A program made the position numbers and the translations under genes. This document shows positions 10,629-52,281 of a stretch of 64,000 bases of DNA, piece by piece (position 1 is the first letter of the stretch; each line of letters starts with the position of its first letter). The DNA lies in NCBI GenBank assembly GCA_963682135.1, contig OY821645.1:1760001-1824000 (forward strand), written 5' to 3'. The notes beneath the pieces were generated by a model that was not told the origin of the DNA, did no database searches, and saw only the letters and a list, made by a program, of their open reading frames with translations. This DNA comes from Methanothrix sp. (lineage in GTDB: Archaea > Halobacteriota > Methanosarcinia > Methanotrichales > Methanotrichaceae).

Positions 10629-10645
10629 ATAATCAGAAGCAACAA

Positions 10646-14092: not shown

Positions 14093-14396
14093 TGATCTCT
14101 AGATCCTTTGAAAGCAAGAGACCATGCCATTGCGAGTCCATTTTCGGATCTGTCTGGAGCGTTATGATTATTAGGTTTTTAACTCTTTTGGTAAAAAAGG
14201 TAAAAAGGTAAAAAAGCAATTATCCAAAACAAATATGGGTTTATATTGAATATGGTGGCATTCCTAGAAGAGATTTAAGCAAAATAGCCAAAATTACCCC
14301 TATAAAAGCCAAAAGCATTTAATATTGGGAGAGCATCCGACTAGCAAACTCTCTACGAGAGAGCGGATGTAGGATTAATAGTAATGAGGTGGTCTA

Positions 14397-33206: not shown

Positions 33207-35852
33207 CTATGGCATTATAATTAGGTCTTGGACGGCGACGCTCAGGCATCTGCAATCGCTACTGTTAAGCTCCGGCATATCACAAGGCTTCTCGCAGCCT
33301 TCCGGCACGCGGAATCTTATTAGATTTTCGCCCCTTGTCAGGCGGATCGGTTGGGTGAGATCAGCAAATTCCGTGGTAACGTTGAGCCTGACTTCAGGAA
33401 TAGCTTCCGAGGATAGCCCCAGAGATCTGGGCCGGGCAAAACTTTGGGCCCGCAAGCTCAAATTGGCGCTGCGGTTTTCCTCAGAATATGCGATGATGGT
33501 CGCATCGTCATCCATCCAGCGAGTCAGCGTTCCGTTCCAGTTCTCTGAATCATGCCAGCCGGAGATAAATTCAATAGATGATTGATCTTTGTCTGAACCG
33601 ACATTGCTTTCCTGCAAACTCGAATTATCTCCTCTTTCGCGTATCAATAGATTGGTAATGCCCACGCTGAGACACCGGCCGTCGATGTTGTTAAGCTTAG
33701 GAATGTCGGAAGGCCTGTTGCAGCCTTCTGGCACATCAAAGCGTACCTGGTTTGTTCCGCGCTTGAGATCAATGGGCATTTGCACAGCGATGGAGCTGGT
33801 GGGCACAATTTCCTTAGCAATGAGTTTGTCCTGGCTGAATGCCTGAAGGGTTCTCTTTGTATTGAAGCTCTGCACGCGCAAGCTTAGAATCGCCTGCATT
33901 TCCCGATCCGAATATATGGTTAGAGTCGCATTGCCCTTCATCCAGCTAGCAGGCACGCCGTTCCACAGCTCCATCTGATGCCAGCCTTCGGTCCTATCAA
34001 AGCCGTAGGGGGATCGGTTGTCCTTGATTATCGTCGGCTTGTATAACTGATAACCCCTCATCGAGAAGGCCAGAGACTGGTAAGGCAATATCTTCGAAGA
34101 TATTATGTAGCTGACGTTCCTCGCATAATCTGTATAGACGCCGGAAGGATCTTCAGCGGTGGAATAGGTAACCACATTTCCTTTCGCCCAGAATTTAGTA
34201 AACGGCAGCATAACCCGGTCTCTCGTGTCGTCTTCCAGATCCATGAGTATTAAAGAGCTATCATTCGAGAGCTTCTCCAGATACGATCCTATCTGATTCT
34301 GATCATGGAATTCCTTCGAAGCGGCTAGCTCGCTGGGAATAATATATGCAGATATGATTAGAGAGACTAAGATAGTAATAAATAATAGGATAAATCGGTG
34401 TTTCCGATTATAGAGTGATAAATATAATCCTGCTAAGAAGATGGGCATTATAACCGGAACTATGGCCCAGGTGGGCATCAGAGACGCCAGATGCCTGAGA
34501 TATAATATCGGCAGGACATCTTTCCCGGTCTCATAAGGAAAGGTTAAGGCAAATAGGAAGCAAGTGGCCAGATACATCATTACGAACGCGGAAATGACCT
34601 TGAATCGGCTCTCTTTCTTTTGCCCGCTTATCCGATTCAAACCGATGAGACCAAACAAAAATATGGCAGGAACCAGAGGATCTATGTACCGTCCCATGAT
34701 CAGAAAATCGTCTCGATTGCATAAAAGAAGAAGGGAATAGCCATCGGGCAGGTCTCTTATCATCTGGTACATGAAGACGACTACAGCAATAACCATAGCT
34801 ATGCCAGAGAATAGGAAATAAATAAGCGAGAATCTCAGGGCTCTGTCATCTCTCATATCTGTCGAATTCTCATAATCGATGACATTCAGGGAAAAGCCCC
34901 TCGTGATATTCAACACAAAAGCTAGAAGTATTGCAGCACCGAGGAATACAACAAAATAGGAGGAGATCATCAAATACTCCAGCTCATGCAAGAGAAGGAT
35001 GAGGAACTCATTCAAAGAGCTAATGTTAAAAATTATATTGGTGAGATCATTTGAATAAACCTCAAACATATACTGCACTCGCCCGATATAACCCCAAATT
35101 GTTGGATTACTGCTAACAGTTATATATGATATTAAAGATACAATGACGAATAAGAAAGCTAAAAACAATCGATATTTAGATAAAATTAATTTTTTAAATG
35201 CGGGGCCTATCTTATCATATTCCAACTCAAAAATGACTGATGCCGCCAAACCGAATAGCATGGCGATGCCGCTATGCTTGGTGAAAAATAACAGTATTAC
35301 AGATAACACGGCCGCAGAGATCCAAAATCTGGTTTTGGTCCGGTAGGCTTCATGCACAAACCAGATGCTAAAGATGAACAGGGGCAGTAACAGATTTTCG
35401 CACATCAGAGAGAAGTTGTAAAGAATCAGGCATGGCAATACTGCAATGGCAATGCAGCCAACTATGGCGTAATCCTTGGAGCAATACCGCCTCATAATGA
35501 AGTAAGACGGAAACATTATAGAAGTGTTTATAATAATAGTAATTAACAACATGATATGATAAATCACGGTTTTATCAGTTGAAAAAAGGTAAGCGAAAGA
35601 TAACGAAAACGGATATAATATTGGAGCTCCAATGAAGTCGGAGCTCAATGAACTTTCAGCCATTTTGGCATAAACCATCTCATCCTGAAAGAGCCATGGA
35701 GACTGAAACTTCAGAGATACAAATGACTTAATTAGAACAATGACGAGGAAAGCAAGAAGTAACAGTAAATTCTGCCTTGCGGCCATCAGAGAGCCAAGAT
35801 GATCAATTGTTCTAGATCTGAGACGATCGAGTTCCATCGGCTTTGGCTCCAC
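33207..35852 (-). CDS. GT-C-like membrane protein with duplicated C-terminal beta-sandwich domain
   Basis: FQDEMVY acidic loop after the first TM, many TM, GRYIDP; two copies of GWH..E.WNG...VPEGC..P.D.P.LN..D.RCLSV. Confidence 0.7.
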   Translation of the reverse strand: MEPKPMELDRLRSRTIDHLGSLMAARQNLLLLLAFLVIVLIKSFVSLKFQSPWLFQDEMVYAKMAESSLSSDFIGAPILYPFSLSFAYLFSTDKTVIYHIMLLITIIINTSIMFPSYFIMRRYCSKDYAIVGCIAIAVLPCLILYNFSLMCENLLLPLFIFSIWFVHEAYRTKTRFWISAAVLSVILLFFTKHSGIAMLFGLAASVIFELEYDKIGPAFKKLILSKYRLFLAFLFVIVSLISYITVSSNPTIWGYIGRVQYMFEVYSNDLTNIIFNISSLNEFLILLLHELEYLMISSYFVVFLGAAILLAFVLNITRGFSLNVIDYENSTDMRDDRALRFSLIYFLFSGIAMVIAVVVFMYQMIRDLPDGYSLLLLCNRDDFLIMGRYIDPLVPAIFLFGLIGLNRISGQKKESRFKVISAFVMMYLATCFLFALTFPYETGKDVLPILYLRHLASLMPTWAIVPVIMPIFLAGLYLSLYNRKHRFILLFITILVSLIISAYIIPSELAASKEFHDQNQIGSYLEKLSNDSSLILMDLEDDTRDRVMLPFTKFWAKGNVVTYSTAEDPSGVYTDYARNVSYIISSKILPYQSLAFSMRGYQLYKPTIIKDNRSPYGFDRTEGWHQMELWNGVPASWMKGNATLTIYSDREMQAILSLRVQSFNTKRTLQAFSQDKLIAKEIVPTSSIAVQMPIDLKRGTNQVRFDVPEGCNRPSDIPKLNNIDGRCLSVGITNLLIRERGDNSSLQESNVGSDKDQSSIEFISGWHDSENWNGTLTRWMDDDATIIAYSEENRSANLSLRAQSFARPRSLGLSSEAIPEVRLNVTTEFADLTQPIRLTRGENLIRFRVPEGCEKPCDMPELNSSDCRCLSVAVQDLIIMP

Positions 35853-35948: not shown

Positions 35949-37013
35949 TGTGTAGTCCCGAAACCTTTGACTTTATATACCCATCAAAGGGGCATGGGAA
36001 AGAAGAATAAAGTTGTAAAGCTAACAGATAGGAAGATCAGATATATCATTCGGGCCAAAAAGAGAGGCGAGAGCACCAAAAGAATCGCGGAGGATATGAA
36101 GTTAAGTCCGTCCTCTGTGAAACGTGTCTGGATGCACTGGACGAAAACCAAGATGCCCCTAAACATTAAGAAATTTGGGCGAAAGAGAATGACCCTGGAT
36201 GAAGAGTCAGTTAAGCTGATACTTGAAGTCCACAAAGAGCAAAATTTAGGCGCAAGACGACTGGAAAAGATCATCGAGTTCACACATGGAACGCATATCC
36301 CTCACAATGCTATTCATAAGGAACTGCTATCTCATGGCTTGGCCAATGTGAACCGCAACAAATCGAAGCGCAGAAAACCCTGGATTAGGTTCGAACGCAA
36401 GCACAGCCTGTCCATGGTGCATCTGGATTGGCATACAAGCATTCACGATGGAAAAAAGGTGTTCATCTGCTTGGTCCTTGATGATAGTTCGCGGCGCATT
36501 CTCGCGGGCGGGGAGTTCGATGCCGAAACAACAGATAACGCTTTGCTACTCCTCAAAGAAGCCATGGGCAGATTTGGCTGGCTGACAAGTATTGAGCAGG
36601 TGCTGACCGACAGAGGGACACAATTCTATGCAAACAAGCGAGACAAGAACGGCGATGCTGATAGCAGATTTGAAGATTTTCTTGAGGCGAATAAAATCAA
36701 GCATATCAAGGCTCGCGTTAAGCATCCTCAGACCAATGGAAAACTGGAAAAATGGAACGACACTTATGAACGTAACAGGTTTAGATTCGAGAATTTTGAC
36801 AATTTCATGAATTGGTATAATACAGTTAGATTTCATGAGTCCCTTGATACAAAATGGTATCTACAGACGCCAGATATCGCATTCTGGTCAAGATTGCCAG
36901 AAGGATGCAAATTGGGAATGTTCCTGAATCGGATGGAGACTGAATTAAATGGTTGATAAAGAATTTAATTTGCGGACCGGAGTATATAAAGTCCAAACAT
37001 TCGGGACTATACA
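35949..37013 (+). mobile_element. IS481-family insertion sequence
   Basis: 32-bp imperfect TIRs (tgtgtagtcccgaa.../...ttcgggactataca); 15-bp direct repeat gattctcagcccaat at 35934-35948 and 37014-37028. Confidence 0.9.
35994..36956 (+). CDS. IS481-family DDE transposase
   Basis: HLDWH, LTDRGTQF and HPQTNGKLE motifs. Confidence 0.92.
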   Translation: MGKKNKVVKLTDRKIRYIIRAKKRGESTKRIAEDMKLSPSSVKRVWMHWTKTKMPLNIKKFGRKRMTLDEESVKLILEVHKEQNLGARRLEKIIEFTHGTHIPHNAIHKELLSHGLANVNRNKSKRRKPWIRFERKHSLSMVHLDWHTSIHDGKKVFICLVLDDSSRRILAGGEFDAETTDNALLLLKEAMGRFGWLTSIEQVLTDRGTQFYANKRDKNGDADSRFEDFLEANKIKHIKARVKHPQTNGKLEKWNDTYERNRFRFENFDNFMNWYNTVRFHESLDTKWYLQTPDIAFWSRLPEGCKLGMFLNRMETELNG

Positions 37014-37111
37014 GATTCTCAGCCCAATCGACCGAAATTTCCGAGATCCGAAATGATGGTTATTTTATTATTTTACAGGTATCATGCACAGCGTTGCAGT
37101 TGGGCTTCCTC

Positions 37112-37870
37112 TCAGAATAAGGACGCTAACAAGAGAGTCACCAGCCCCATAGCAATACAGAACCTTGAGAAGTTAACCTTTTCCGCGAATCTGATCAAAA
37201 GATCCATGCAAAGGTATCCTGTGACAAAGGACGCCAAAATCGCCAGAGCAACAGACCCGGGGGGCACAGCGGTAACGGAATGATCCAGGACTAACGCGCC
37301 CAGGACGGCAGGCACGCTTATCATGAAGGAGATGACCAGAGCCATATCCTGCCGGATGTTCCTTATGAGAAGCACAGTGAGCGTTGTCCCGGATCGAGAT
37401 ACACCCGGCAAAATGGAGAAACCCTGGGCCAGTCCCAGTAGAATCATATCGGTGGTTTTCATATCCTCGATGCTCCTGGATCCGGACCCTTTGAACCTGA
37501 GAAGCAGCCCGGTAATAATTAGCAGGCCTCCAATCAACAGTGTGGCTTCTTTACCCCCGTTGAAACTCTCTTTGAAAAGGAAGTAAAGCGGCATTCCGGT
37601 TATGCCTGTAAAGATCGTGCAGACAACCAGGATTCTGGTCATGCGGGAGTGTATGTTCTTTAGCACATCCAAGAACTCGCCTCTGAACTTGACCAGGACT
37701 GCAGACATGGTGCCGATGTGGAGCAGAATGGAGTAAGAAAGGGCCTCTGCAGGGGTGATGCCCAGCCACTTCATCATGACAAGCATTGTCTGGCCTTCGC
37801 TGCTTATCGGTATCCATTCTGTTATCCCCTGGAGCATCCCCAGTAAAACCACCTGTATTGCATCCATCAT
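37112..37870 (-). CDS. uppP: Undecaprenyl(polyprenyl)-diphosphate phosphatase, BacA type
   Basis: QGITEWIPISSEG and PGVSRSG motifs. Confidence 0.9.
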   Translation of the reverse strand: MMDAIQVVLLGMLQGITEWIPISSEGQTMLVMMKWLGITPAEALSYSILLHIGTMSAVLVKFRGEFLDVLKNIHSRMTRILVVCTIFTGITGMPLYFLFKESFNGGKEATLLIGGLLIITGLLLRFKGSGSRSIEDMKTTDMILLGLAQGFSILPGVSRSGTTLTVLLIRNIRQDMALVISFMISVPAVLGALVLDHSVTAVPPGSVALAILASFVTGYLCMDLLIRFAEKVNFSRFCIAMGLVTLLLASLF

Positions 37871-38067
37871 CACATAGGAAATCTCAGGAAATATATCATA
37901 GTTTTGAAGGATGGCATCAACCAAAGGAGTACCCCGTTCGGCGAAAGAGAGAATTGCAGAGAAGATAGACTGCTAAATCAGCAATCAAAGCAATTGTCGC
38001 TCATGCCGTCATCTTTTGCAGATAGGCAAGCTTAATATACTGTAACACCAATCGACGGCTTGATATT

Positions 38068-39057
38068 ATGGAGATTGTGATCACTCTCTGCGTGCTCGTT
38101 AGTTTCCTGGCCACCTGGGTAGTTGCCAGGAAGTGGATTCGCAAAGCACCGGAGATCGGCCTCCTCGGCTTCGACATGAACAAGCCCGGCATGCCCAAGG
38201 TGGCCGAGATGGGAGGAATTTGCGTTGTCTTTGGATTCGTTCTGGGCATACTCATCTACATCGGCCTGATGACATTTTATCTGCACATGCAGGATTATGT
38301 GGCGATTCTGGCCGTGCTCGCTACCATACTCAGCATGTGCATAATCGGCATGATGGACGATCTGTTGGGCTGGAAGAAGGGGCTGCGACAGTGGCAGAAA
38401 CCGATCTTCACTCTCTTTGCCGCCATGCCGATGATGGTAATTAACGCAGGACATTCCACCATGAACCTGCCGATCATAGGTGTTGTGGATTGGGGCATCA
38501 TGTATCCACTCTTGATAGTCCCCATCGGAATAGTAGGAGCTTCAAATGCGTACAACATGGTGGCAGGATATAATGGTCTGGAAGCTGGAATGGGGGTAAT
38601 AATACTATCCACACTTGGCTATTTTGCATTTATTAACGCCAAACAAAGTGCTATGATGCTGGCCATATGCATGGTCTGCGCGCTGATGGCATTCCTGTAT
38701 TTCAATTGGTATCCTGCTAAGGTATTTCCTGGCGATACGATGACCTACTCCGTGGGAGCGCTGGCCGCATGCGTTGCCATATTAGGGGATATGGAGAAGA
38801 TCGCAGTTGTGCTCTTCCTGCCCTATGCTTTCGACTTCATCATTCAGGCAACGGGCGGGTTTCGCAAGGAAGCGTTCGCCAAAGTAAACGAGGACGCAAG
38901 CCTGGAGAAACCTTATAAAGGATTATATCACCTCACGCATCTGGCAATAGTGGTGTTGATGCAGTTAAAGAGCAAGGTGTATGAGAGAGACGTGGTGCTA
39001 TTCTTGTGCGGGATAGAGATGGCTATAGCAGGATTGTGTGGTTATATATATTTATAA
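38068..39057 (+). CDS. Polyprenyl-phosphate HexNAc-1-phosphate transferase (GPT/AglH/WecA-like)
   Basis: DMNK, GMMDD, NAYNMVAGYNGLE and VFPGD motifs. Confidence 0.9.
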   Translation: MEIVITLCVLVSFLATWVVARKWIRKAPEIGLLGFDMNKPGMPKVAEMGGICVVFGFVLGILIYIGLMTFYLHMQDYVAILAVLATILSMCIIGMMDDLLGWKKGLRQWQKPIFTLFAAMPMMVINAGHSTMNLPIIGVVDWGIMYPLLIVPIGIVGASNAYNMVAGYNGLEAGMGVIILSTLGYFAFINAKQSAMMLAICMVCALMAFLYFNWYPAKVFPGDTMTYSVGALAACVAILGDMEKIAVVLFLPYAFDFIIQATGGFRKEAFAKVNEDASLEKPYKGLYHLTHLAIVVLMQLKSKVYERDVVLFLCGIEMAIAGLCGYIYL

Positions 39058-39080
39058 AAAAACGTGCCTGAGGCTGTATA

Positions 39081-39911
39081 ATGGATGATGAAATTGATCT
39101 GCGTGATATATTCGGTGTTCTCTGGAAGAGGCGCCTCCTGATCATCGGCGTCTTTGTGGTAGCTGTCCTGGCGGCAGGCGTGATAAGCTTCGTCATGCCA
39201 CCTACATATGAGGTCTCCGGCATTGTCGCCCTGGGCAACTTTGGTGAGCCTATCTATACAGACCAGGCAGCTGCAACGGATATCATGCTGAGCGATGAAT
39301 TTCTTTTAGATTTAATTGGAAAACTCAACCTCAGCATAACTCCGGGCAACTACAGTGGATTTAAGGAAAGCATCAAAATCGAACCTGTAAAAGGAACGGA
39401 TAGCCTCCTTATGATCTCTATTGAGACAAAGGACAAGCAGCAAGGGATTGAGGTCATCGACGGGATTGTGCGCCTCTTCGCCAACCGCAGCGAAGTAAGC
39501 TACAATAAACAAATGAAGATCCTGTCAGACCAGTTGGCAGTCACTGATGAAAACCTGAATATAATTGAGGGGGATATAAATCAAACTCGAGACGTGCTCA
39601 AAGGCGTCGTAGAGGTATCAGGTGAGAGCGCAGGTACATTTTCGATTGATAACGAAGTGCGCGTCTCGCGTACTTTAGATTATTTACAGGCAGAAGAGAC
39701 CAGGCGCTCGGCACTAATTGATCGCGATTTAGACCTTAAAAAGCAATTGACTTTGTCGAGGCACCTGGATGTCGTGCAAAAGCCAACCGAACCCCTCGCA
39801 CCCATATGGCCTAAGAAGGCCCTGATTGTGGCCGTTGCAGGGATCCTCGGCCTGATGATAGGCATATTTGCGGCGTTCCTGAGGGAGGGGCTCGGGAAGC
39901 GGACAGGGTGA
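39081..39911 (+). CDS. wzz: Wzz-like polysaccharide co-polymerase
   Basis: DEIDLRDIFGVLWKRR N terminus, coiled coil, P..PIWPKKALIVAVAGILGLMIG C-terminal TM. Confidence 0.85.
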   Translation: MDDEIDLRDIFGVLWKRRLLIIGVFVVAVLAAGVISFVMPPTYEVSGIVALGNFGEPIYTDQAAATDIMLSDEFLLDLIGKLNLSITPGNYSGFKESIKIEPVKGTDSLLMISIETKDKQQGIEVIDGIVRLFANRSEVSYNKQMKILSDQLAVTDENLNIIEGDINQTRDVLKGVVEVSGESAGTFSIDNEVRVSRTLDYLQAEETRRSALIDRDLDLKKQLTLSRHLDVVQKPTEPLAPIWPKKALIVAVAGILGLMIGIFAAFLREGLGKRTG

Positions 39912-39929
39912 GGGAGAACGTCAGGCAAG

Positions 39930-41489
39930 ATGAAAGGCTCGAGCGAGATTGAGGGAGGGAACACCAGGGTCAGCGGCAGCCAGATTGCTCGCAACACGCT
40001 TCTGAACCTGATCGGCCAAGCGGTGCCTCTGCTCGTGGCAGTGATCGCCATCCCTCTCATCGTGAAGGGACTGGGCACGGAGCGTTTCGGACTGCTCACC
40101 CTCACCTGGGTGGTTATGGGCTACTTTACCATCTTCGACCTGGGACTGGGAAGGGCCACGACCAAATATGTGGCTGAGGCCTTGGGCAAGGGCGAGGATG
40201 ATCAAGTACCTCAGATCATCTGGACCGCGGTCACCTTTCAGGCGATTCTGGGTATTGTTGGTACACTTGCGTTGTTCGGGAGCACGGACTTTCTAGTGGG
40301 AAGCGTCCTGAACATCCCAACACAGCTTCTGGGCGAAGCCAGGGATACCTTCCACCTGCTGGCATTTGCTATTCCTGTAGTTATGATATCCAGCTCATTC
40401 AGCGGTGTGATAGAGGCAACACAAAGGTTTGATCTGATAAATGTAGTGAAGATCCCGTCCAGCATTCTAACTTACCTTCTCCCTTTAGTGGGCTTGTTTC
40501 TAGGATTTAACTTACCTGGCATCGTAGCCTTAATTTTGCTGGCAAGGTTAGCAACATTAGTTGCCTTTATGGTGATGAGCCATCGCGTCGTTCCTAAGCT
40601 AAGTGAGTATTCGGTATCATTCAACCGCTTCTATAGTCTCTTTACATATGGTGGTTGGGTTACGGTAAGCAGTGTGGTCAGTCCCGTTCTGGTTTACCTG
40701 GACCGGTTACTGATCGGATCGCTTCTTACAATCGCTGCGGTAGCATATTACACAGCCCCTTATGAGGCGGTTACCCGCCTCTCGATCATCTCGTTTAGTC
40801 TGACCATGACGTTATTTCCGGCTTTTAGCACCTTGGAAGGCGTAAAAGATAGGCAGAAAATGGGCAAATTCTTTGCTCGTTCCATTAAATATGTCCTCTT
40901 AGCCACAGGACCGATTGTAATATTGGTAGTTCTCTTCGCCAAGGAGATCCTACAAATATGGTTGGGGACTGATTTTGCAGCAAAAAGCACAGTGGCAATG
41001 CAGGTGCTGGTATTGGGTGTGCTGATCAATTCTCTTGCTCTAACGCCTTTTGCGCTCCTTCAGGGCATAGGACGCCCGGATCTTCCGGCTAAGTTTCATC
41101 TGCTGGAGCTTCCCGTTTATATCGGTATAGCCTGGATTTTGGTGAATGAATTTGGCATCGCAGGAGCTGCAGGGGCCTGGACGGTGCGTGTGGCGTTGGA
41201 TGCACTCTTGCTGTTTGCAGCCACCTCCAAAGTATGCCAATTCTCACCTCGCCTTCTCGCAGAAAACGGCATAACACTTGCGGTTTTTGAGCTCGTAATG
41301 CTTGCTGGCATCGTATATGCACTTAAGACTTATGCCTATACGCTTCCCCTGCTCGTTCAATGCTTGCTAGTTATCGGACTTCTGGCCACTTTTGCCCTTT
41401 TTGCCTGGAATTACGTTATGGATAATTCGGATCGAAGAGTGGTTCTTAAGGTAATAAAGCTGAAGAAGTCATTGGAGAGCACATCATGA
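39930..41489 (+). CDS. wzx: Wzx-type (MOP) flippase
   Basis: RNTLLNL, LGTERFG, DLGLG and DRLLIG motifs; ~12-14 TM. Confidence 0.9.
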   Translation: MKGSSEIEGGNTRVSGSQIARNTLLNLIGQAVPLLVAVIAIPLIVKGLGTERFGLLTLTWVVMGYFTIFDLGLGRATTKYVAEALGKGEDDQVPQIIWTAVTFQAILGIVGTLALFGSTDFLVGSVLNIPTQLLGEARDTFHLLAFAIPVVMISSSFSGVIEATQRFDLINVVKIPSSILTYLLPLVGLFLGFNLPGIVALILLARLATLVAFMVMSHRVVPKLSEYSVSFNRFYSLFTYGGWVTVSSVVSPVLVYLDRLLIGSLLTIAAVAYYTAPYEAVTRLSIISFSLTMTLFPAFSTLEGVKDRQKMGKFFARSIKYVLLATGPIVILVVLFAKEILQIWLGTDFAAKSTVAMQVLVLGVLINSLALTPFALLQGIGRPDLPAKFHLLELPVYIGIAWILVNEFGIAGAAGAWTVRVALDALLLFAATSKVCQFSPRLLAENGITLAVFELVMLAGIVYALKTYAYTLPLLVQCLLVIGLLATFALFAWNYVMDNSDRRVVLKVIKLKKSLESTS

Positions 41490-42523
41490 ATGAGAATGAA
41501 GGCGTTCGTGTGAGAGAAGCTCGATGTTGTTTGCTGTGTGGATGCGAAGGGACGCAGTTATACACGGACCTGCGGGACCGCCTTTTCAGTGCGCCGGGCA
41601 ATTGGGAACTCATGCAATGTCTCAAGTGTCAGTTGGTCTGGCTCAATCCGCGCCCGATCCCAGACGACATCGGAAGACTTTATTCCCAATACTACACCCA
41701 TAAGATCCTTGATTCTCCTAACAATGTACTGGCTAGCATTCGCAAAATCGTGAAAGCAGGCATTCTGCAATCCAGCTATGGTTATAAGATGATGGGTTCA
41801 AATAGGTTGGCAGGATTCGTATTGAGCGGGCTTGGTCCCATCAAGGAAATTGCTGGAGGTTGCGTGCAGTGGCTTATTGCCAATGAGAAAGGACGTATTC
41901 TTGATGTGGGTCGCGGAAGTGGGGCATTCTTAGTCAAAATGAGGGAACTTGGCTGGAACGTAGTAGGCGTTGAGCCTTACGGAGAAGCTGTTAGGAATGC
42001 CCATGATATAGTAGGATTGGGTGTTCATCACGGAACATTAGAGGAAGCAAAGTTTTCCGATGATTACTTTGACGCGATCACTCAGAACCACGTAATCGAG
42101 CATATGCGTGGTCCGATTGGATTGCTGAAGGAATGTCGTCGTGCGCTAAAGCTCGGTGGAAAGCTGGTGGTTGTGATACCAAACATTGATAGCTTGGGAA
42201 CACGCATGTTTGGTTATACATGGTTACACTGGGATCCTCCGCGTCATTTGATTCTCTTCTCCACACAGAAGTTGCAGGAATGTGCAATGCGATCTGGGCT
42301 GATAATTCAGGAGCTTCGGACAACTAAAAAAGAAGGTCGATCGAGCTGGGCTGTTAACTGTTGCATCAAGAGAGATGGCATGCCTGGCATGCTTCCTGGC
42401 GTCTTGCCCAAAACATTGGGTATTTTACTCCGACTGAAAGGACTGGCGTTTCAGGCTGTAGAATACGAGCTGAGCGGCCGAGGTAAGGCAGGTGCGGAAC
42501 TGGTGCTGTTAGCTACAAAGTAG
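41486..42523 (+). CDS. Class I SAM methyltransferase with N-terminal Zn-ribbon (possibly decaying)
   Basis: CLLC...CLKC, ILDVGRGSG, NHVIEH and DPPRHL motifs. Confidence 0.75.
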   Translation: MNENEGVRVREARCCLLCGCEGTQLYTDLRDRLFSAPGNWELMQCLKCQLVWLNPRPIPDDIGRLYSQYYTHKILDSPNNVLASIRKIVKAGILQSSYGYKMMGSNRLAGFVLSGLGPIKEIAGGCVQWLIANEKGRILDVGRGSGAFLVKMRELGWNVVGVEPYGEAVRNAHDIVGLGVHHGTLEEAKFSDDYFDAITQNHVIEHMRGPIGLLKECRRALKLGGKLVVVIPNIDSLGTRMFGYTWLHWDPPRHLILFSTQKLQECAMRSGLIIQELRTTKKEGRSSWAVNCCIKRDGMPGMLPGVLPKTLGILLRLKGLAFQAVEYELSGRGKAGAELVLLATK

Positions 42524-42577
42524 GAAAAATTCGAATAGAGGCAAGAAACTGCCCAAAGTTATCGTCGGGAGGGCCTG

Positions 42578-43867
42578 GTGGGAATGCAATTAGCTCGTTT
42601 TGCCCTAATAGGAAATGCGCCAAGAACCGATCAGAGAAGCGCCTTGAAGCGGATCTCTACCGAGAAGGTTATTCATGCCCTTTTTAAGATAATGCTAATT
42701 GTATTTTTAATTTTTCCTGCATCATTAGGCACTCTAATTAAATTTATAGTTATTTTTAGTATTTTCATTTTTAGTTTTCTAAGAGGACTAAAGATAAATC
42801 AATTCATAGTATTTCTCCTGATAACATCATTTAACATTGTTTATTTATTCTATTCCGTTACCAAACTAGACATTATTGAGGAGCTATCAATACGTGCATT
42901 CCTAAGCTACCAAGGTGTAATCTTAACAACGTTTGTCCTTGTTTGGGGGTCATATAATATAAAAAAAGAGGAGATTTTAAAATTTGTTGTGATAGGGGCG
43001 TCCGCATATTCTTTAATAAAATTAATATTAATTTTTATGCCATATTTAGGGTTCCTGACCGCTATTAATACAGGTTTTGTCATGGACCTTCGAGGTCAGG
43101 GTTTTTCCCGGATTGCAACATCCAATGACCTCATATTTCCTTTTGCGATTTTTTTAATTTTGAATAGAAACGCATTCAACTTAAAATTTGATAAAAAAAC
43201 AACCATAATCTCACTATTACTAATGCTGAGTACAAGTATACTAACATTTACAAGATTTATATGGATTTCAACGTTTATTGCGATAACAGGATATATACTA
43301 TTGAATTTTAGCCACATATTCAAACTATTTATAAGCAAAAAAATGATATTGGCCACCGTAATATTATCTATAATTTTTGCTTTATCCTTACTATATCCCC
43401 CGTCGCAGATAAAAGGAATTTCTGAAAATATTTTAATCAGATCTGGTGATTCACGTTCCATTGATGTCAAAGTTGAACAGGCTAGATATTTACTCACAGA
43501 TTTTTTCAATGCCCCACTTTTAGGTGCAGGAAACGCTGCGTTTATAAAGGATTATATTAGATACGAACGGTTGCCGTTTGTTTATGAAACGCAATGGGTC
43601 GCAATCTTATACCAATTTGGAATTGTTGGGACCGCCTGTATAGTAGTCTTTCTCTTATTACCAATTTTTCCTTTGATAAAACAGATCCTTATTTATCAGA
43701 GAACGTCTAATAATTTAATTATGGTATTCATTTTATACATAGGATTCCTATTTTCAGCATTTACAAATCCAAATCTATTCACACTTAATTCATCAATTAT
43801 ATACTTTTCAGTATATACTATGTGTCTATTTTGCATAGATAGCAAAAGGAGATGTGATCCAGAATGA
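42578..43867 (+). CDS. wzy: Wzy-like polymerase / O-antigen ligase family membrane protein
   Basis: AT-rich, ~11 TM, TFTR and PLLGAG..YE..W..ILYQFGIVG (Wzy_C-like); position in the wzz-wzx cluster. Confidence 0.7.
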   Translation: MGMQLARFALIGNAPRTDQRSALKRISTEKVIHALFKIMLIVFLIFPASLGTLIKFIVIFSIFIFSFLRGLKINQFIVFLLITSFNIVYLFYSVTKLDIIEELSIRAFLSYQGVILTTFVLVWGSYNIKKEEILKFVVIGASAYSLIKLILIFMPYLGFLTAINTGFVMDLRGQGFSRIATSNDLIFPFAIFLILNRNAFNLKFDKKTTIISLLLMLSTSILTFTRFIWISTFIAITGYILLNFSHIFKLFISKKMILATVILSIIFALSLLYPPSQIKGISENILIRSGDSRSIDVKVEQARYLLTDFFNAPLLGAGNAAFIKDYIRYERLPFVYETQWVAILYQFGIVGTACIVVFLLLPIFPLIKQILIYQRTSNNLIMVFILYIGFLFSAFTNPNLFTLNSSIIYFSVYTMCLFCIDSKRRCDPE

Positions 43868-44694
43868 AAATGGACATCCTCCTGGCAACATACAACGGTG
43901 AAAAATATGTGGACCATTTGATAGAGTCACTACTAACTCAAAGCCATTCGCAATTTTCGATTCTTATAAGAGATGACGGATCGACTGATAAGACGATAGA
44001 GATAATTCGAGATTACGAGCAAATGCACAAAGGAAAAATAAAGATAATTCGAGATAACTTAGGAAATCTAGGTAGCAGCAGATGCTTTATAGAATTACTC
44101 ATGCATACCGAAGCAGATTATATAATGCTCTGTGATCAAGATGATGTATGGCTTCCGAATAAAATAGAAATAACATTGGAAATGATGGAGAGACTAGAAA
44201 AGATGCATAATAAAGAGACACCAATATTGGTCTTTACGGATTTGAAAGTCGTGAAAAATGATTTAGACATTGTTTCTGAATCTTTCTGGAAGTATCAAAA
44301 ATTAGATCCAGAGATATCAAAGGATTGGGTGGCACTGCTTGCGAGCAATGTTATAACCGGTTGTACTATAATGTTAAACCGAAAAGCAAAAGAAGTAGTA
44401 CTTCCATTTAGATTACCTAAAATGATACACGATCATTGGTTAGGCGTGAATATTTCGAGATATGGAATAGTTGACTATATAAGCATCCAAACAATTTTAT
44501 ACAAACAACATGGTGAAAATATTATAGGGGCCAGCGAATATAACGCAAGGTATTTTATTAAAAAAATTGCTAACGGGAAAAATATTATAAATATAATAAA
44601 AATAAACTATAATTTTTCTAAATACTTTAAGGTTTCATTTTGTAAAATACTATTTTTAAAATTAAAAATTAATCTGTCGAGGCTGCTGAAATGA
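43864..44694 (+). CDS. GT2 glycosyltransferase (rhamnosyltransferase-like)
   Basis: LATYNGEKY, RDDGSTD, CDQDDVW and HDHW motifs. Confidence 0.9.
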   Translation: MKMDILLATYNGEKYVDHLIESLLTQSHSQFSILIRDDGSTDKTIEIIRDYEQMHKGKIKIIRDNLGNLGSSRCFIELLMHTEADYIMLCDQDDVWLPNKIEITLEMMERLEKMHNKETPILVFTDLKVVKNDLDIVSESFWKYQKLDPEISKDWVALLASNVITGCTIMLNRKAKEVVLPFRLPKMIHDHWLGVNISRYGIVDYISIQTILYKQHGENIIGASEYNARYFIKKIANGKNIINIIKINYNFSKYFKVSFCKILFLKLKINLSRLLK

Positions 44695-45788
44695 AAATTG
44701 CGATTCTTGGTACACGCGGTATTCCAAATCGGTATGGAGGATTTGAGCAAAGTGCAGAGAATCTATCAATCAGGTGGAAAAATAATGGCAATGAAGTGAC
44801 TGTTTATAACCCCAACGACCATCCATATACGGAAAGAGAATGGAATGGTATCAGAATAAAGCAAATATATTCCAATGAAAAAAAAATTGGCGTAATAGGA
44901 ACTAATATCTTCGATTATTTATGCTTGAAGGACGCCTTGAATCAAGATTATGATATAGTATTGGAACTTGGCTATTCTGCTTCGGTGTTCTACCCATTAA
45001 AAAGGAATAGAAAGTTCAAAATAGTCACAAATATGGATGGATTAGAGTGGAAGAGAAGCAAATGGAATACACTGACTCGACGACTTTTAAAAACCCTAGA
45101 AAAACAGGCTGTGCTAAAAAGCGATGTATTGATCGCAGATAATCCGGGTATACAAGATTATTTGAAAATAACATACAATAAATCCAGTTTTTATGTACCA
45201 TATGGTGCTGATGCAAAAATATTTGTAACCCCATATAAGAATGTATTAGACGAATATCATTTGGAGCCATATTCCTATTATCTTTTAATAGCAAGACTTG
45301 AACCCGAGAATAATATCGAAATGATTCTAGATGGATATATTCAGCTAAAATTAAAAGAACCTTTTTTGGTTGTGGGAAATCATGAAACAAAATTTGGCAA
45401 TTATTTATTAAGAAAATATAAAAGATATCCTTTAATCAAATTTGTAGGTGGAATATATAATTATTACATTTTAAATAATATTAGATATTTTTCAAAAATA
45501 TATTTTCATGGGCATTCAGTAGGCGGTACAAACCCATCTTTGTTGGAAGCAATGAGTTGTGGTTGTTATATTGCATCACATAATAATTATTTTAATAAGT
45601 GCGTTTTGGAAAAGAACGCGCTATACTTTAATAATAGCAAAGAAGTTTGCGAAATAATAAATAATTATGACGAAAAATTTAAAAACAAGTTTGTTAATAA
45701 CTACAGAATAAAAATTCGCGAAGTTTATAATTGGGATATTGTTTCTAAACAGTACTTAGAAATTTTTAATAACATGTTAAGTTCATGA
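44691..45788 (+). CDS. GT4 glycosyltransferase with DUF1972 domain
   Basis: GTRGIPNRYGGFE, NMDGLEWKR and HSVGGTNPSLLEAM motifs. Confidence 0.9.
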   Translation: MKIAILGTRGIPNRYGGFEQSAENLSIRWKNNGNEVTVYNPNDHPYTEREWNGIRIKQIYSNEKKIGVIGTNIFDYLCLKDALNQDYDIVLELGYSASVFYPLKRNRKFKIVTNMDGLEWKRSKWNTLTRRLLKTLEKQAVLKSDVLIADNPGIQDYLKITYNKSSFYVPYGADAKIFVTPYKNVLDEYHLEPYSYYLLIARLEPENNIEMILDGYIQLKLKEPFLVVGNHETKFGNYLLRKYKRYPLIKFVGGIYNYYILNNIRYFSKIYFHGHSVGGTNPSLLEAMSCGCYIASHNNYFNKCVLEKNALYFNNSKEVCEIINNYDEKFKNKFVNNYRIKIREVYNWDIVSKQYLEIFNNMLSS

Positions 45789-45895
45789 ACTAAACCCCTT
45801 TTTTTAGGCTTTTCATTGATTCATGCGCCCATATTTCGCACTAACGGTTTGAACGCTTTCTAATTTTCCCAGATTTTATGGATAATCTCTTTTAA

Positions 45896-45988
45896 CCTGA
45901 CCTCCCCATTTTTTAGGCACACATATGAAGGGCATCCAGAATTTGGCGCTGTTTCTTAGAGATCTCGGTCGTGATTCTTTCTCCATCC
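45896..45988 (-). pseudogene. 3' end of an IS1634-like transposase with terminal repeat
   Basis: Minus-strand DGERITTEISKKQRQILDALHMCA* followed by aaaatggggaggtcagg; family assignment from recall. Confidence 0.55.
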
Positions 45989-47323
45989 GGTAGTGTGCCC
46001 GCTTTGCTGTAAAATCTCGGTTAAATCCCACGTCAAGAGCCGACGTGCTGTGAACGAGATAACAGCAAATTATTTCTTCACAAGATTTAATAATTAGCCC
46101 TGTATCCCCAAAGTTGTCGAAACCTAAGGAGGGACACAGAGCTATGAATATGGTAGACTTAGCAGAAGATTATCTTATCGATCCAAAAGAGGGTATGAGG
46201 AAGTTAATAGCTGGCTATCTCAATGAAGTAATGCAACTTGAAGCCCAAAAACAAATTCAGGCAGGACCTTACGAGCGCACCGGCAAGAGAAAAGGCCATC
46301 GTAACGGATCAAGACCGCGATCACTTAAGACCATTCACGGTGACATAACTCTCGATAAACCTGAAATCCGGGAGTTCCCATTCAAGTCAAAAGTATTCTA
46401 GAGATATTCTCGTGTAGAGGATTCTGTAAGAGTCGCTGTTGCGGAATCGTATTTAGAGGGTGTATCAACCAGAAAAGTCGAGAAGATATTCTCGAAATTT
46501 GGATTGCATGGCATCTCTGCTTCGGAAGTCTCACGAATAACCAAACGTCTTGATAAACAGGTTAAAGAGTTCCTTAACAGGCCCATTGAAGGAGCCATCC
46601 CTTATTTGTTCGCGGATGCAAGCTATTTCAAGGTCAGAACAGATGGCAGGTATATCAACAAGGCATTACTCGTTGTAACCGGCATTCGCGAAGACGGCTA
46701 TCGTGAGATTCTGAGTGCGGCGGTTGCTGATAGCGAAGAAGAGTATTGTTGGGAAAGCTGCTTTGAAGATTTGAAAGCCAGAGGACTTGACGGCGTCAAA
46801 TTAGTGATATCCGATGGTCACAAAGGGATACAGGCTGCGGTTGAAAAGGTATTCGTTGGTGCATCTTGGCAAATGTGCAATGTCCATTTTATGCGTGCAG
46901 TGCTCAAAAACATATCGAAAAAGGATAAAAAAGAAGTTGCGTACCTGCTGAAAGATGCTCTTGAAGATGAGCGCAAAATGCAGGAGACAGCAGTAATCCT
47001 TGATGGAATGGGTTATAAAAAGTCTGCAGACACAATCGATAGGTTCCGGTTCGATCTCTGGAATTACAAATCATTTCCAAGATCGCACTGGAGAAAGATC
47101 CGGACTACTAACGGTCTGGAAAGAATCAACAAAGAGCTGAAGCGAAGAAGTCGTGAATCTGGAGCGTACTCTAATGATCAATCACTCCTGAGAGTTGCAG
47201 TCTGCATCATGATGGACATCCATGAGGATTGGATAACTGGTAATAGGTATTTATCCTTGGAAGAGTAAATAGAATCAGGATATAGGGCTACTGCGAATTT
47301 TACAGCAAACAAGGCACGCTACC
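45989..47323 (+). mobile_element. IS256-family insertion sequence
   Basis: TIRs ggtagtgtgcccgctttgctgtaaaat / attttacagcaaacaaggcacgctacc; no flanking duplication. Confidence 0.88.
46144..47268 (+). pseudogene. IS256 transposase interrupted by one in-frame TAG (46399-46401)
   Basis: ORFs 46114-46401 and 46504-47268 share a frame; RNG..PR, DASYFKVR, ISDGHKG and RTTNGLER motifs. Confidence 0.85.
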
Positions 47324-47622
47324 GATTTTATCTCCGAGAGCCTTTTTCCAGGAGGTTCTGATGCAGAAGCGGCATAGAAAGTTATCTGGCCTTCATGAAG
47401 CTTCTCACCGAATGTCTCATTGAGAAAATCCCACATCAGATTCACAAGGGATCGGCAAGTAGCCTTCGGGAAGCTGTAGTCCGCTTCAAGTGTTTGGAAT
47501 AACCTTTGCTGAGCACTTCTCACCCAAGGGCCTTTGTAAACCAGATCAGTCTCATCTACTTGTACCATCTGTCCCACCAGTGCTAGAATTCGTATCCGAA
47601 GATACTTTAATGTAGGGGACAT
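47324..47622 (-). pseudogene. Truncated DUF1670-like ORF cut by IS256
   Basis: GQITFYAASASEPPGKRLSE resembles the DUF1670 motif; truncated at the IS256 right end. Confidence 0.5.
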
Positions 47623-47701
47623 TTGGACGAATAGTAAATTATGAAGCGTTCAAACCGTTAGTGCGAAATATGGGATAAAATTAAGGCCACCTGCGGGATG
47701 T

Positions 47702-48900
47702 GGGGTTGTGTACTTCTTTTACTGAAATATTTTAATACTACCTCATTGTATAATTGATAAGGGGTAGCGATGGAGTCAAGTCTTGATTTGACAAATTTTT
47801 GGTGCTGGCAGAAAGATTGTACTGATTACGGGAAAAAGGGTGCAGGAAACATAGTTTTGAAGGAGAGATATGGTAAGGATAACCGGGCGCTCCTTAAATG
47901 CAGAACATGCGGCCATTGTTTCAGCGAGACTCACGGAACGCCGTTCTTTGGCCTTAACACTTCAATTGATGAGGTCTGCCGAACACTGGCAATGATTCCA
48001 GAGAAAGGAAGCATTCGCGGAGCTGCACGGATGTCGGGCCATGATAAGAGCACAATATGCAAGTGGGTCGATCTTGCCGGCGAGCACTGCAAAGAAGTTA
48101 CGGATTATTTTCTGAGAGAACTTCGCTTGGACCGCGTGCAAGTTGATGAGATCTGGTCATATATAAAAAAAGGAGAAAAACGTCGCTGCCAGCGATTCGA
48201 AAGAATACGGTGATGTCTACAGCCTGACTGCAATAAAACCTGACACTCGACTTTTTTTAAGCCATCATGAAGGAAAAAGAACTGCCGATGATTGTGTCGA
48301 ATTTTTTGTCGATATTGAAAAACGTCGCGCAATTGATTCGTCAATTCCTGTATTTACTTCAGATAACTGGGATCCATTCGAGGAAGGGCTTCTCAATGTT
48401 TATGGTTTTCTTGAGACTCCCCATTACTGCGGAATCGGAAGAAAGCCTGAGCCAGTACTGGTTCCTTATCCCAATCTGAAGTATGCAAAGGTATGCAAGA
48501 AAAGGGAGAAGGGACGAATCGTTGAGGTAATACAGTGTGTTGTTTATGGTGATCCAAAAGAGGTAATGAGTTTACTCGGTACCGATTCTGGTGGAAAGAT
48601 CAATACGGCATATATTGAGCGGTTGAATCTCACAATTCGCAATTCATTGGCGCGATTTGTGCGCAAGAGTATGAATTGCAGCAAGATCTTGGGGAGGCAT
48701 ACTCATGCTTTGGACTTTTTCCAGGCTTGGTACAACTTCGTCAAGCCACATAAGTCACTTCGGAAAAGGATTGATCAAGGAAGGAAAAAGTGGATGCAAA
48801 GAACACCTGCAATGGCAGAAGGAATGACTGATCATGTATGGACTATCAAGGAGTTGATGGGATTCAAGATACCTTTTCAGTAAATCAAGTACACGACCCC
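47702..48900 (+). mobile_element. IS1-family insertion sequence
   Basis: TIRs ggggttgtgtacttcttttactgaaa / tttcagtaaatcaagtacacgacccc; flanking ggatgt duplicated. Confidence 0.85.
47770..48883 (+). CDS. IS1-family transposase expressed via -1 frameshift
   Basis: OrfA Zn-finger/HTH up to QVDEIWSYIKK; A7G at 48165-48172; the -1 frame is open through FTSDNW and AYIERLNLTIR to 48883. Confidence 0.85.
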
Positions 48901-48951
48901 GGATGTGGGATATATCGTTAAACAGAATAAATGTTTGGTTTCTAACTATAA

Positions 48952-51900: not shown

Positions 51901-52281
51901 TGTAGATGCTATGGCGAATATAGATGCATAGAATATCATCTGTTTTTCAAATGGGACCGAAACCGACTTAAGGTACTTTTTTGATACGTAATTAAATAAA
52001 ACAAATAATATGCAGAATAGTAATATTGCGCCTAATATGAACTCAACATACAACTGCGTCCGAAGCGCCGTATCCACACCAGAGATGACGGCAATCCCAA
52101 GGGTCCTGTCCTTGAAGTTGGTCAATTCAAGGGCATTGTTATTTATCAAGTACTGCAAGATAAATACTATTATGCTTAGAGTCAGCGAGGCACTCAAAGT
52201 GATCGCACATGGATCAATGCCGCCTATGCGCTCTTCCTCTGCAATCAGCTCGTCCTTGCATTCCGAGCGTTTTATATCCAT
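48952..52281 (-). CDS. Large polytopic membrane protein, GT-C-like
   Basis: 1109 aa, ~20 hydrophobic segments, YDMFHQGE acidic loop, C-terminal soluble domain. Confidence 0.65.
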   Translation of the reverse strand: MDIKRSECKDELIAEEERIGGIDPCAITLSASLTLSIIVFILQYLINNNALELTNFKDRTLGIAVISGVDTALRTQLYVEFILGAILLFCILFVLFNYVSKKYLKSVSVPFEKQMIFYASIFAIASTFLYVSSNWQEIFLNNLLLLYFIIILLISFVLIKVAAYYRGWMGVSDAFSREIITLSLIFPYIAYVACLTLFNMSLSFFNDGHHYFILFILWLTFIGGYYLLNRTCIGFEGHDLLVSNLIVLSFIPALLIPISIPLSNELQYTLSGMVHIEPRLLSSIIVALLLLSSLVLFVVLLKKERTKVRSARVIAELYFPIIIATATLFRYYQHLLVIGQYDMFHQGELLISNQQLFSFGSLPYIGIYPTHGLSEMYYLVLYSLANGYNPVEPLLWAWITPVIVSVLVYFILKNIIDPAFSLMAMLLVPILDLVGGYYYYAFCMLIALGLIWMLKRLTLFRSCVFWITMIFLLFWRLDFGIAALAGIIFIFSIIYAKNVFIKSLDRIGIYNLSLSFLIITILSLAIFALLATANSESIGQIILQNIQFAVYQSQVASYVAIASSYSNLAMLQYSLLPCISVIYVIYFILIVFMRQEEPYERQIILVFLAIFSLIMSIRSVQRHSLLESYNSYLFVFLLICMPFYFNFKRNLSRVLCLGLLLAYLLAIPSYTIMFNNQDGDFFDYHDWQNKEKRVHDNKSQYQDIVSFIDHSLEKNQTFFDFTNSPMLYVLADKKHIPYIIPNLYQTSDLMQNVTIEKLENYHDKGDLPVVIFKQGNWWDFVDGIPNEVRSYRIAEYIYQNYRPIGTVNQYQIWTEKNSSIVDVFRTNEIIKPINFKPKEMRSCDINRTSEDKLEFLCGNYDPQLSNFLDLASLGPLNRTAYSNLIIRYNSSLAGRLQLFFGYNGSEFGEYSCGVNLINRSCSTGNYSEVSVPLTYGKIGLTDVRFDPPDSSIFEVQSVQLDERNTPLNNIPPQDLQQDFDLKILPYIWGKYDERKASLLTKILENIRMTKTRISKDEELTLPIDPNMDKSSGNYIHIKMKSETNGNVSLSYGKGLKSSIKFRVLPTKEYEDYLIRISSQFLWMNEPIDSISIKPNEDVEIAQVLIRKGD

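Follow-up and report, generated by a model that had tools for sequence, protein, structure and literature searches.

The closest described counterparts of the locus analysed here are the bacterial Wzx/Wzy systems that use a stand-alone polysaccharide co-polymerase (PCP), such as WzzB for O-antigen, WzzE for enterobacterial common antigen and TuaF for teichuronic acid. The locus lies within a 64,000-nucleotide stretch of the genome of the archaeon Methanothrix sp. (hereafter the window; positions 1,760,001 to 1,824,000 of contig OY821645.1, assembly GCA_963682135.1), and its predicted products show the same division of labour: a sugar-1-phosphate transferase, glycosyltransferases, a MOP-superfamily flippase, a polymerase of the Wzy_C/EpsG kind, a co-polymerase with two transmembrane (TM) segments and a helical hairpin, and carrier recycling by UppP. 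A low-GC, variable region of wzy and glycosyltransferase genes beside conserved genes is typical of O-antigen loci and recurs here. The differences are equally clear. The host is an archaeon that lacks peptidoglycan, lipopolysaccharide and an outer membrane; its initiating enzyme, GPT, resembles DPAGT1/Alg7 and not WecA or WbaP, which makes dolichol the probable carrier; and a second WaaL-type gene, LCP, OPX and a bacterial tyrosine kinase (BY-kinase) were not found in its genome. We conclude that the Wzx/Wzy pathway has a genuine archaeal variant in this locus, a mosaic of an archaeal initiation and lipid-pyrophosphate cycle, a family-specific Wzz and a swapped cassette, and we put at roughly two in three the probability that its product is a repeat-unit glycan of controlled length assembled on dolichol pyrophosphate.

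Archaeal agl clusters provide the second point of comparison. They usually hold an AglH/Alg7-type GPT, a Wzx-like flippase, a methyltransferase and glycosyltransferases, as illustrated by the AglH GPT of Methanococcus and by the AglR flippase and AglP methyltransferase of Haloferax volcanii. The Methanothrix locus has in common with them the Alg7-type GPT, the flippase, the methyltransferase, GT2 and GT4 enzymes and, in all likelihood, the dolichol carrier, but it adds Wzz, a Wzy_C protein and UppP, and AglB is not among its genes. To our knowledge, the characterised Agl pathways make short oligosaccharides and include neither a polymerase nor a chain-length regulator, and AglB is the enzyme that defines them. 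Bacitracin binds lipid-linked pyrophosphate.

Repeating-unit glycans have nevertheless been described in archaea. The S-layer N-glycan of Halobacterium salinarum, as summarized in one part of a review, consists of 10-20 repeats, contains methylated uronic acid, is carried on dolichol pyrophosphate and is sensitive to bacitracin (PMC2952790). These are the properties that GPT, UppP, Wzy, Wzz and the methyltransferase would predict, although the Methanothrix locus is known from its genes alone, and that section of the review names no genes for the Halobacterium glycan. The same section reports the sheath of Methanosaeta concilii to be a glycoprotein whose glycan is linked through rhamnose (PMC2952790), and a Haloferax N-glycan with repeating units is described elsewhere, in the portion of the source considered here, as still having no known pathway (PMC8241124). 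CapsuleFinder, likewise a genome-based search for archaeal surface polysaccharide systems, recorded 47 systems in 40 of 159 archaeal genomes (Rendueles et al. 2017, PMC5542703). In the sections of that survey drawn on here, all of these were synthase-dependent or of the poly-gamma-glutamate (PGA) type and none belonged to the Wzx/Wzy group, with the authors' caution that the models are bacterial (PMC5542703). Lectin staining has revealed capsular and cloudy extracellular polymeric substances (EPS) and glycoconjugates around Methanothrix, in a study of metagenome-assembled genomes (MAGs) that discusses AglB-type N-glycosylation alone and whose main text contains neither wzz nor wzx nor 'chain length' (PMC9128505). 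Our full-text literature searches found no publication on a Wzz or PCP of archaea.

The ORF listing and profile searches (Pfam and NCBIfam) define eight intact open reading frames (ORFs) in the locus, with uppP on the minus strand divergent from a seven-gene block on the plus strand (38068-45788). The uppP/bacA gene (37112-37924) matches PF02673 BacA/UppP (E = 4e-47). The block opens with GPT (38068-39057; PF00953 Glycos_transf_4, 2.8e-36) and continues with wzz (39081-39911; PF02706 Wzz, 4.8e-13, and GNVR, 8.7e-8), wzx (39930-41489; Polysacc_synt, 4e-23, Polysacc_synt_3, 7.9e-21, and MatE, 1.1e-11), a gene for a class-I, S-adenosylmethionine (SAM)-dependent methyltransferase (MT; 41486-42523; Methyltransf_23, 5e-22), the wzy candidate (42578-43867; Wzy_C, 9.2e-8, with 32.4 bits where the cut-off is 31.7), a GT2 gene (43864-44694; PF00535, 1.3e-22) and a DUF1972/GT4 gene (44691-45788; DUF1972, 1.1e-19, and NF046071 Cps2T, 3.8e-56, with 190.6 bits where the cut-off is 500). 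Start and stop codons overlap by 4 nt at three junctions (wzx/MT, wzy/GT2 and GT2/GT4), with gaps of 23 nt between GPT and wzz, 18 nt between wzz and wzx and 54 nt between MT and wzy (42524-42577), and the arrangement indicates that the ORFs are translationally coupled. The divergent intergenic region (37925-38067) contains, about 30 nt 5' of the GPT ATG, a TATA-like box (TTAATATA, 38032-38039), which we take as a putative archaeal promoter of GPT giving a leader that would be short or absent. A Shine-Dalgarno (SD)-like GGGAGGG at 42567-42573 precedes an ATG at 42584, probably the true start of wzy rather than 42578, and a run of seven T residues (45799-45805, plus strand), 11 nt past the GT4 stop codon, is likely to be an archaeal terminator.

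What is unusual about this set, judged by its families, is the combination of Wzz with a lipid-pyrophosphate cycle; Wzy_C itself is not rare in the phylum. An AlphaFold2 (AF2) model of Wzz, built from an alignment of 30 relatives (mean pLDDT 83.5), has the two-TM, alpha/beta base and helical hairpin architecture of a PCP: TM1 spans residues 18-38 and TM2 residues 244-275, and the hairpin is formed by 119-182 and 189-225. Foldseek matched this model to Wzc (9.5e-14) and WzzE (~1e-10), followed at lower rank by KpsE and WzzB (to ~4e-7), all with probability 1.0. A Pro/Gly-rich segment at TM2 is the general signature of PCPs, and on that definition both the Wzz N-terminal domain and the motif are present: across the 30 sequences P238, G257 and L258 are invariant and P241 and P244 nearly so, the three prolines and G257 lying before or in TM2. 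The protein is a stand-alone one of 276 residues that ends past TM2 and has no kinase domain, which sets it apart from the PCP-2 class (Wzc / CpsC-CpsD), and no BY-kinase elsewhere in the genome scored over the cut-off (best match TIGR01007, 34.7 bits against 108, far from the locus). Profiles and model together thus point to a polysaccharide co-polymerase that would regulate chain length.

Wzz has a narrow distribution. It is present in seven of 400 other genomes drawn from the phylum (five of the 16 from the same family, one from a sister family and one sub-threshold), and was not found in this draw outside three families. All named relatives above 45% identity come from Methanothrix/Methanotrichaceae; the next best are bacterial, from Bacillota, Sysuimicrobiota, Chloroflexota and Zixibacteria, and share at most 31% identity with the Methanothrix protein, a further difference from the bacterial systems. 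In an unrooted tree of 23 sequences, from which one 735-residue Wzc-like row was left out, the nine Methanotrichaceae proteins, all full-length ORFs, form one clade (SH-aLRT 99), with a Bacillota sequence as its weakly supported neighbour (83). Given that the tree is unrooted, the direction of transfer is suggested solely by the abundance of the family in bacteria. A sequence from G414, a genome of another family of the class, stands apart on a long branch; its gene lies in a locus (L017, 2272-9225) with the order AglB-GT2-GT4-PIN-Wzz-VanZ and encodes a protein of 322 residues that is 25% identical to the Wzz of the window.

The initiating step was assigned to GPT on the basis of its PF00953 domain and of its best solved relatives, human DPAGT1 (2.2e-20) and then MraY (1.3e-10), which make it a predicted polyprenyl-phosphate N-acetylhexosamine (HexNAc)-1-phosphate transferase of the Alg7/AglH/DPAGT1 kind. 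An enzyme of this type implies that the carrier is probably dolichyl phosphate and the intermediate pyrophosphate-linked. The genome has a single PF00953 gene, GPT, and a single BacA match, uppP. The BacA domain of UppP is near full length (profile positions 2-256 of 257); all NCBIfam UppP equivalogs fall under their cut-offs on this protein (best 139.6 against 354), which suggests a divergent member, probably specific for dolichyl pyrophosphate. UppP is predicted to dephosphorylate polyprenyl (probably dolichyl) diphosphate and so to recycle the lipid pyrophosphate freed by glycan transfer.

Within the genus these genes are patchily distributed. Among 24 other genomes, uppP occurs in four (G002, G004, G008 and G022), GPT in five (the same four and G012) and wzz in three (G002, G004 and G022), while none of the three has a match in the remaining 19, several of which are 98-99% complete and others incomplete, so that absence is not established for the latter. 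All four uppP-positive genomes also carry GPT, a co-occurrence that backs the carrier-recycling role of uppP, and the lipid-pyrophosphate cycle looks like an accessory trait that moves as a unit in the genus. A housekeeping role of GPT as initiator of N-glycosylation is out for this genus, as the gene is found in five of 24 genomes and has no match in several that are 98-99% complete.

The wzx product is predicted to be a MOP-superfamily flippase for lipid-linked repeat units, and orthologues with 64-65% identity follow wzz in L027, L028 and L031, with partial matches of 71-81% in L025 and L029. The MT protein, whose N-terminal ~130 residues belong to no Pfam family, has orthologues in the equivalent position in L015/L027 (58%) and L031 (53%), and thus belongs to the conserved head of the locus in some relatives.

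The genome has no Wzy_C gene other than the wzy candidate. A word-based search returned eight relatives (30-72% identity) and a profile search 2009 at E<=0.001; of 83 aligned family members, 52 match Wzy_C. The AF2 model from this 83-sequence alignment (pLDDT 88.9, pTM 0.88) was matched by Foldseek to WaaL first (6.2e-5) and then to RodA and FtsW, and a structure search independent of Foldseek gave WaaL at Z 18.6 (341 residues aligned, root-mean-square deviation 6.0), the SEDS proteins FtsW/RodA at Z 10.0-10.6 and everything else at or below 6.3. Invariant in the alignment are R176, R224, G314, G316, Y334, G346 and N395; no His is found among its invariant or near-invariant columns. Pfam Wzy_C spans both ligases and polymerases, and WaaL and PglL depend on a conserved catalytic His in a large external loop. 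We read the protein, from its sequence and model, as a polytopic membrane glycosyltransferase that probably polymerises repeat units. In the phylum draw, Wzy_C exceeds its cut-off in 31 of the 400 other genomes, mostly in three families with genomes of 3-4 Mb, and it is present in none of three near-complete Methanothrix genomes that lack wzz.

These results bear on a preliminary description of this DNA, which had proposed a complete, bacterial-style pathway in the order uppP / GPT-wzz-wzx-MT-wzy-GT2-GT4. ORFs, family assignments and fold tests all agree with that gene set. 'Bacterial-style' is apt only in part, the initiating enzyme being closer to eukaryotic/archaeal DPAGT1 than to MraY, and 'complete' describes the assembly set, with no enzyme for attachment or release recognised. 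The identity of Wzz, for which profile and structural confirmation had been suggested, is supported by the Pfam Wzz and GNVR matches and by the likeness of its model to Wzc/WzzE. The lack of a polymerase fold, named there as grounds for abandoning the proposal, was not what we found, as the wzy model falls in the WaaL, RodA/FtsW fold class.

Base composition divides the locus in two. The genome is a single contig of 3,043,341 bp with a GC content of 0.501, and its long ORFs average 0.515 +/- 0.06. The genes of the head are close to these values (uppP 0.497, GPT 0.492, wzz 0.491, wzx 0.496, MT 0.487) and those of the tail are far below them (wzy 0.319, GT2 0.319, GT4 0.303); GC at third codon positions (GC3) in wzy/GT2/GT4 is 0.27-0.32 against a genome mean of 0.585, and only 1.08% of 1-kb windows of the genome have a GC content <= 0.34. 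The change from ~0.49 to ~0.31 occurs at 42524-42583, the switch itself lying inside the 54-nt spacer between MT and wzy. A contig of 8874 bases identical to window positions 36984-45857, with zero differences, was recovered from X1 (study P1) and X3 (study P2), one run each, among which the source sample of the window may itself be found. The recovery of the same contig from both indicates that the junction is real and not an artefact of assembly.

Comparison with related loci likewise separates conserved from variable genes. Seven Methanotrichaceae wzz loci were annotated with Pfam (the window, L012, L014, L015, L016, L028 and L031), and L013, from genome G115, was compared by BLAST alone. 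Across the Methanotrichaceae loci, identities to the window proteins are 48-68% for Wzz, 60-87% for UppP, 53-58% for MT and 67-82% for GPT, with a different GPT lineage (37-39%) in L015/L027 and L028; uppP orthologues adjoin GPT-wzz in L015/L027 (87%), L025, L014 and L031. Downstream of wzz the gene sets diverge: a MurJ-like flippase, GT2, GT4, Wzy_C (3e-15) and two further GT4 genes in L014; wzx, MT, two GT2 genes and EpsG (6e-39) in L015; wzx, a TylF methyltransferase, AsnB, Wzy_C (1.4e-11) and GT4 genes in L016; and wzx, MT, GT2, Wzy_C (7.4e-13) and two GT4 genes in L031. In L028 sulfate-activation-like genes and a sulfatase-family gene precede wzx, and in L012 wzz is followed by five acylphosphatase-domain paralogues and rmlDACB, with a flippase match just beyond. 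A polymerase candidate is thus present within 10 kb 3' of wzz in five of the seven annotated loci, Wzy_C in four and EpsG in L015, and none of the Methanotrichaceae comparison loci contains a homologue of the window wzy, GT2 or GT4.

These observations support a head (uppP, GPT and wzz, here with wzx and MT) that appears to be a long-resident accessory module of Methanotrichaceae, and a tail (wzy, GT2 and GT4) that appears to be a recently exchanged cassette setting the chemistry of the repeat unit. The preliminary description had inferred just such a resident scaffold with exchangeable repeat-unit genes, and GPT-wzz beside unrelated tails, the Wzz clade, the co-occurrence of uppP with GPT and a tail without homologues in the compared loci bear it out. 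Its contrast of host-like uppP, GPT and wzz with AT-rich wzy and glycosyltransferases likewise stands on GC content and extends to wzx and MT on the host-like side; the comparison downstream of wzz that it had suggested revealed glycosyltransferase and polymerase sets that differ between Methanotrichaceae loci, and, of the gene-by-gene phylogenies it had in mind, the one given here is that of Wzz with its single Methanotrichaceae clade (SH-aLRT 99).

Several of the related loci have features of their own. The wzz-wzx interval of L028, from a MAG of Methanothrix harundinacea (8619-14652), encodes a PAPS_reduct-family protein, a TauE exporter, an EF-Tu/CysN-like GTPase and the sulfatase-family protein, gene content that hints at a sulfated polymer in this species. 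Small proteins with an acylphosphatase-like domain occur near glycan loci in L012 (10278-13987), in the window (6976-7512) and in L015 (4539-5162); those of L012, which belongs to genome G127, are the five paralogues, arranged in tandem between wzz and the rml genes. The translations of L012 11246-11860 and window 6976-7512 continue after this domain into a coiled coil and have no signal peptide. In L013, a 127-residue GPT-like fragment (3898-4281) is all of a GPT that was seen 5' of wzz, and GPT may therefore be disrupted in G115.

The DUF1972/GT4 protein shares its DUF1972+GT4 architecture with the Cps2T/WchF beta-1,4-rhamnosyltransferases and fails their NCBIfam equivalog cut-off, the architecture being all that they have in common; it is related to Cps2T-type rhamnosyltransferases and likely to add the second sugar on the lipid-pyrophosphate-HexNAc, and GT2 is a predicted repeat-unit sugar transferase. 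A possible source of dTDP-rhamnose for this Cps2T-like GT4 is an rml-like gene cluster at another place in the genome. Within the window, a truncated RmlD-like frame of 182 residues on the minus strand (29248-29613; profile positions 74-194 of 287, 107.7 bits) is probably a gene fragment within a glycosylation island. The named GT4 relatives (49-57%) are all bacterial and come from many phyla, and among the 80 loci that GT4 retrieved in a metagenome scan (best 69%) none carries Methanothrix head genes or a wzy homologue. Neither the wzy relatives, the GT4 relatives nor the metagenome scan names a donor for the low-GC cassette.

Insertion sequences (ISs) border the locus on both sides. On the left, between uppP and a PMT_2-like gene discussed below, lies an IS481-family element (35949-37013, plus strand; NF033577, 1.7e-48) with 32-nt terminal inverted repeats and a second, 99% identical copy at genome position 1566596-1567664; contigs break and read depth rises at this element. 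On the right, an IS stack (45989-48903) comprises an IS256-like (45989-47323; NF033543, 1.3e-73) and an IS1-like element (47703-48903; NF033558, 3.2e-8), with second genome copies that are 99.2% and 97.8% identical, and contigs break at 45857/45989. The transposase gene of the IS256-like element is divided between two ORFs, 46114-46401 and 46504-47268. As a 99.2% identical copy exists elsewhere in the genome, this division may belong to the element itself and not be a sign of decay. A composite transposon was ruled out, the left (IS481-like) and right (IS256-like and IS1-like) elements belonging to different families. A sequence of ~95 bp after the GT4 terminator (45896-45990) recurs at 95-97% identity at no fewer than eight other sites in the genome and may be a miniature inverted-repeat transposable element (MITE) or an IS end at an insertion hot spot.

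We propose the following pathway, in which the reaction steps follow from family membership; gene content, folds and co-occurrence are what was shown. GPT would transfer HexNAc-1-phosphate to dolichyl phosphate, giving dolichyl-pyrophosphate (Dol-PP)-HexNAc. The DUF1972/GT4 enzyme, possibly a rhamnosyltransferase, and GT2 would complete a short repeat unit, which MT may methylate. Wzx would flip this unit to the outer face, where the Wzy_C protein would polymerise Dol-PP-linked units to a chain length set by the stand-alone Wzz, and UppP would convert the released Dol-PP to dolichyl phosphate. As a reading, the length-controlled polymer envisaged in the preliminary description is therefore consistent with the gene content, the folds and the co-occurrence of the genes. 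The product, by analogy with the repeating-unit N-glycan of Halobacterium, may be protein-linked.

A number of observations weigh against this pathway. The Wzy_C match is marginal; the best fold match of the wzy model is the ligase WaaL, and no solved O-antigen Wzy is among the matches; the Wzy family profile returned nothing from PDB sequences at E<=10; and NCBIfam gave the 83 family members single spurious matches alone and no name. As the fold class includes both ligases and polymerases, fold alone cannot settle the activity of the Wzy_C protein. The thermophile-type genomes G127 and G115 carry GPT-wzz, yet their Wzy_C is sub-threshold. In G008 and G012, GPT has orthologues (70-71%) that are not accompanied by wzz, which argues that GPT serves non-polymerised glycans as well. 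The predicted sugars of the repeat unit are guesses, with the Cps2T model far under its cut-off. No LCP ligase was found in the genome, and no attachment, release or export component was recognised. Finally, the seven sequencing runs from three studies that were found to contain the locus include no RNA run.

One alternative is that the locus is an Agl-type N-glycosylation cluster, in which a Dol-PP glycan, polymerised or not, is transferred by AglB onto sheath, S-layer or other surface proteins. We consider this unlikely, while granting it more weight than any other alternative; it overlaps with the pathway proposed above and differs from it solely in the acceptor. The content of agl clusters, the DPAGT1-like GPT, the two AglB/STT3 genes of the genome and the position of the G414 Wzz gene, three genes past AglB-GT2-GT4, all favour it, as do the Halobacterium salinarum glycan and the Methanosaeta concilii sheath glycoprotein in the part of the review considered above (PMC2952790). 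However, both AglB/STT3 genes lie outside the locus, the nearer about 70 kb away, most Methanothrix genomes lack GPT and uppP, so that general N-glycosylation in them is independent of this module, and the acceptance of a polymer by AglB is an assumption.

The WaaL-like fold raises a different prospect, namely that the Wzy_C protein acts like WaaL or PglL, as a ligase or oligosaccharyltransferase, and joins single units or short glycans to a protein or lipid acceptor, with Wzz in another role or vestigial. The Wzy_C family does include ligases, and the genome has one Wzy_C gene and no other ligase that we found. We judge this improbable, in view of nine full-length Wzz ORFs in one clade, of the polymerase candidate that follows wzz in five of seven loci and of an alignment without an invariant or near-invariant His; moreover, EpsG, which occupies the same slot in L015, belongs to a different family that is annotated as polymerases, not ligases, and this argues for a polymerase over a ligase. 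Still less probable, in our estimate, is that the locus is a silent or decaying IS-flanked import that is neither expressed nor functional. The ISs on both flanks, the aberrant GC3 of the tail, the truncated rmlD nearby and the lack of an RNA run among the seven would fit such a history, but none of the eight ORFs is disrupted, their starts and stops are coupled, SD-like, TATA-like and T-run signals are in place, the block is identical in contigs from two studies, and the flanking ISs are of different families. We therefore retain the length-controlled repeat-unit glycan on dolichol pyrophosphate as the preferred reading.

Candidates for the acceptor of this glycan are a protein, reached through one of the two AglB enzymes, or through a neighbouring GT-C protein; alternatively, the polymer may be retained on lipid or released as EPS. 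The GT-C protein is a PMT_2/GT39-like membrane glycosyltransferase of 881 residues encoded beyond the left IS (33207-35852, minus strand; PMT_2, 3.1e-4, under cut-off), with Atlas feature matches to GT39/PMT_2/DUF7024 clusters at a score of 0.99. Its homologues stand beside GPT or uppP in L023 (73-80%), L014 (34%), L031 and L015, and we regard it as a candidate outer-face transferase, as a lead only.

Other genes of the window were noted in passing. Next to the GT-C gene, 30763-33174 (plus strand) encodes a membrane protein of 803 residues that has FG-GAP repeats at its C terminus and a region weakly resembling GT87; its homologues lie beside uppP in L013 (49%) and, in L025 (61%), between uppP and GPT. 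On the far side of the right IS stack, a 1109-residue ORF without a Pfam or NCBIfam match (48952-52281, minus strand) is directly downstream of, and co-directional with, genes for a GT2 and an FAD-oxidoreductase. Two DUF1646 paralogues form a divergent pair at 12935-14092 (minus strand) and 14397-15506 (plus strand), with E-values of 5.8e-116 and 6.3e-110.

A large part of all biogenic methane comes from Methanothrix, which also acts as a seed of anaerobic granules. Its locus represents, as far as gene families can tell, a concrete set of genes with which an archaeon could make a repeat-unit glycan of controlled length. The locus couples an archaeal/eukaryotic-type initiation to a co-polymerase otherwise known from bacteria and, by the same logic as O-antigen loci of bacteria, joins a conserved head to a tail that can be swapped. 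It supplies candidates for the making of archaeal repeat-unit glycans on dolichol pyrophosphate, and it could explain the sugar coats seen around Methanothrix. A more speculative thought, which we would not bet on, is that the module is the missing genetics of archaeal repeating-unit protein glycans, its polymer being moved by AglB or the GT-C protein onto sheath or surface proteins of Methanothrix. If so, exchange of the cassette would produce 'serotypes' that differ between strains and influence how granules form and how viruses or neighbours are recognised in methanogenic consortia.

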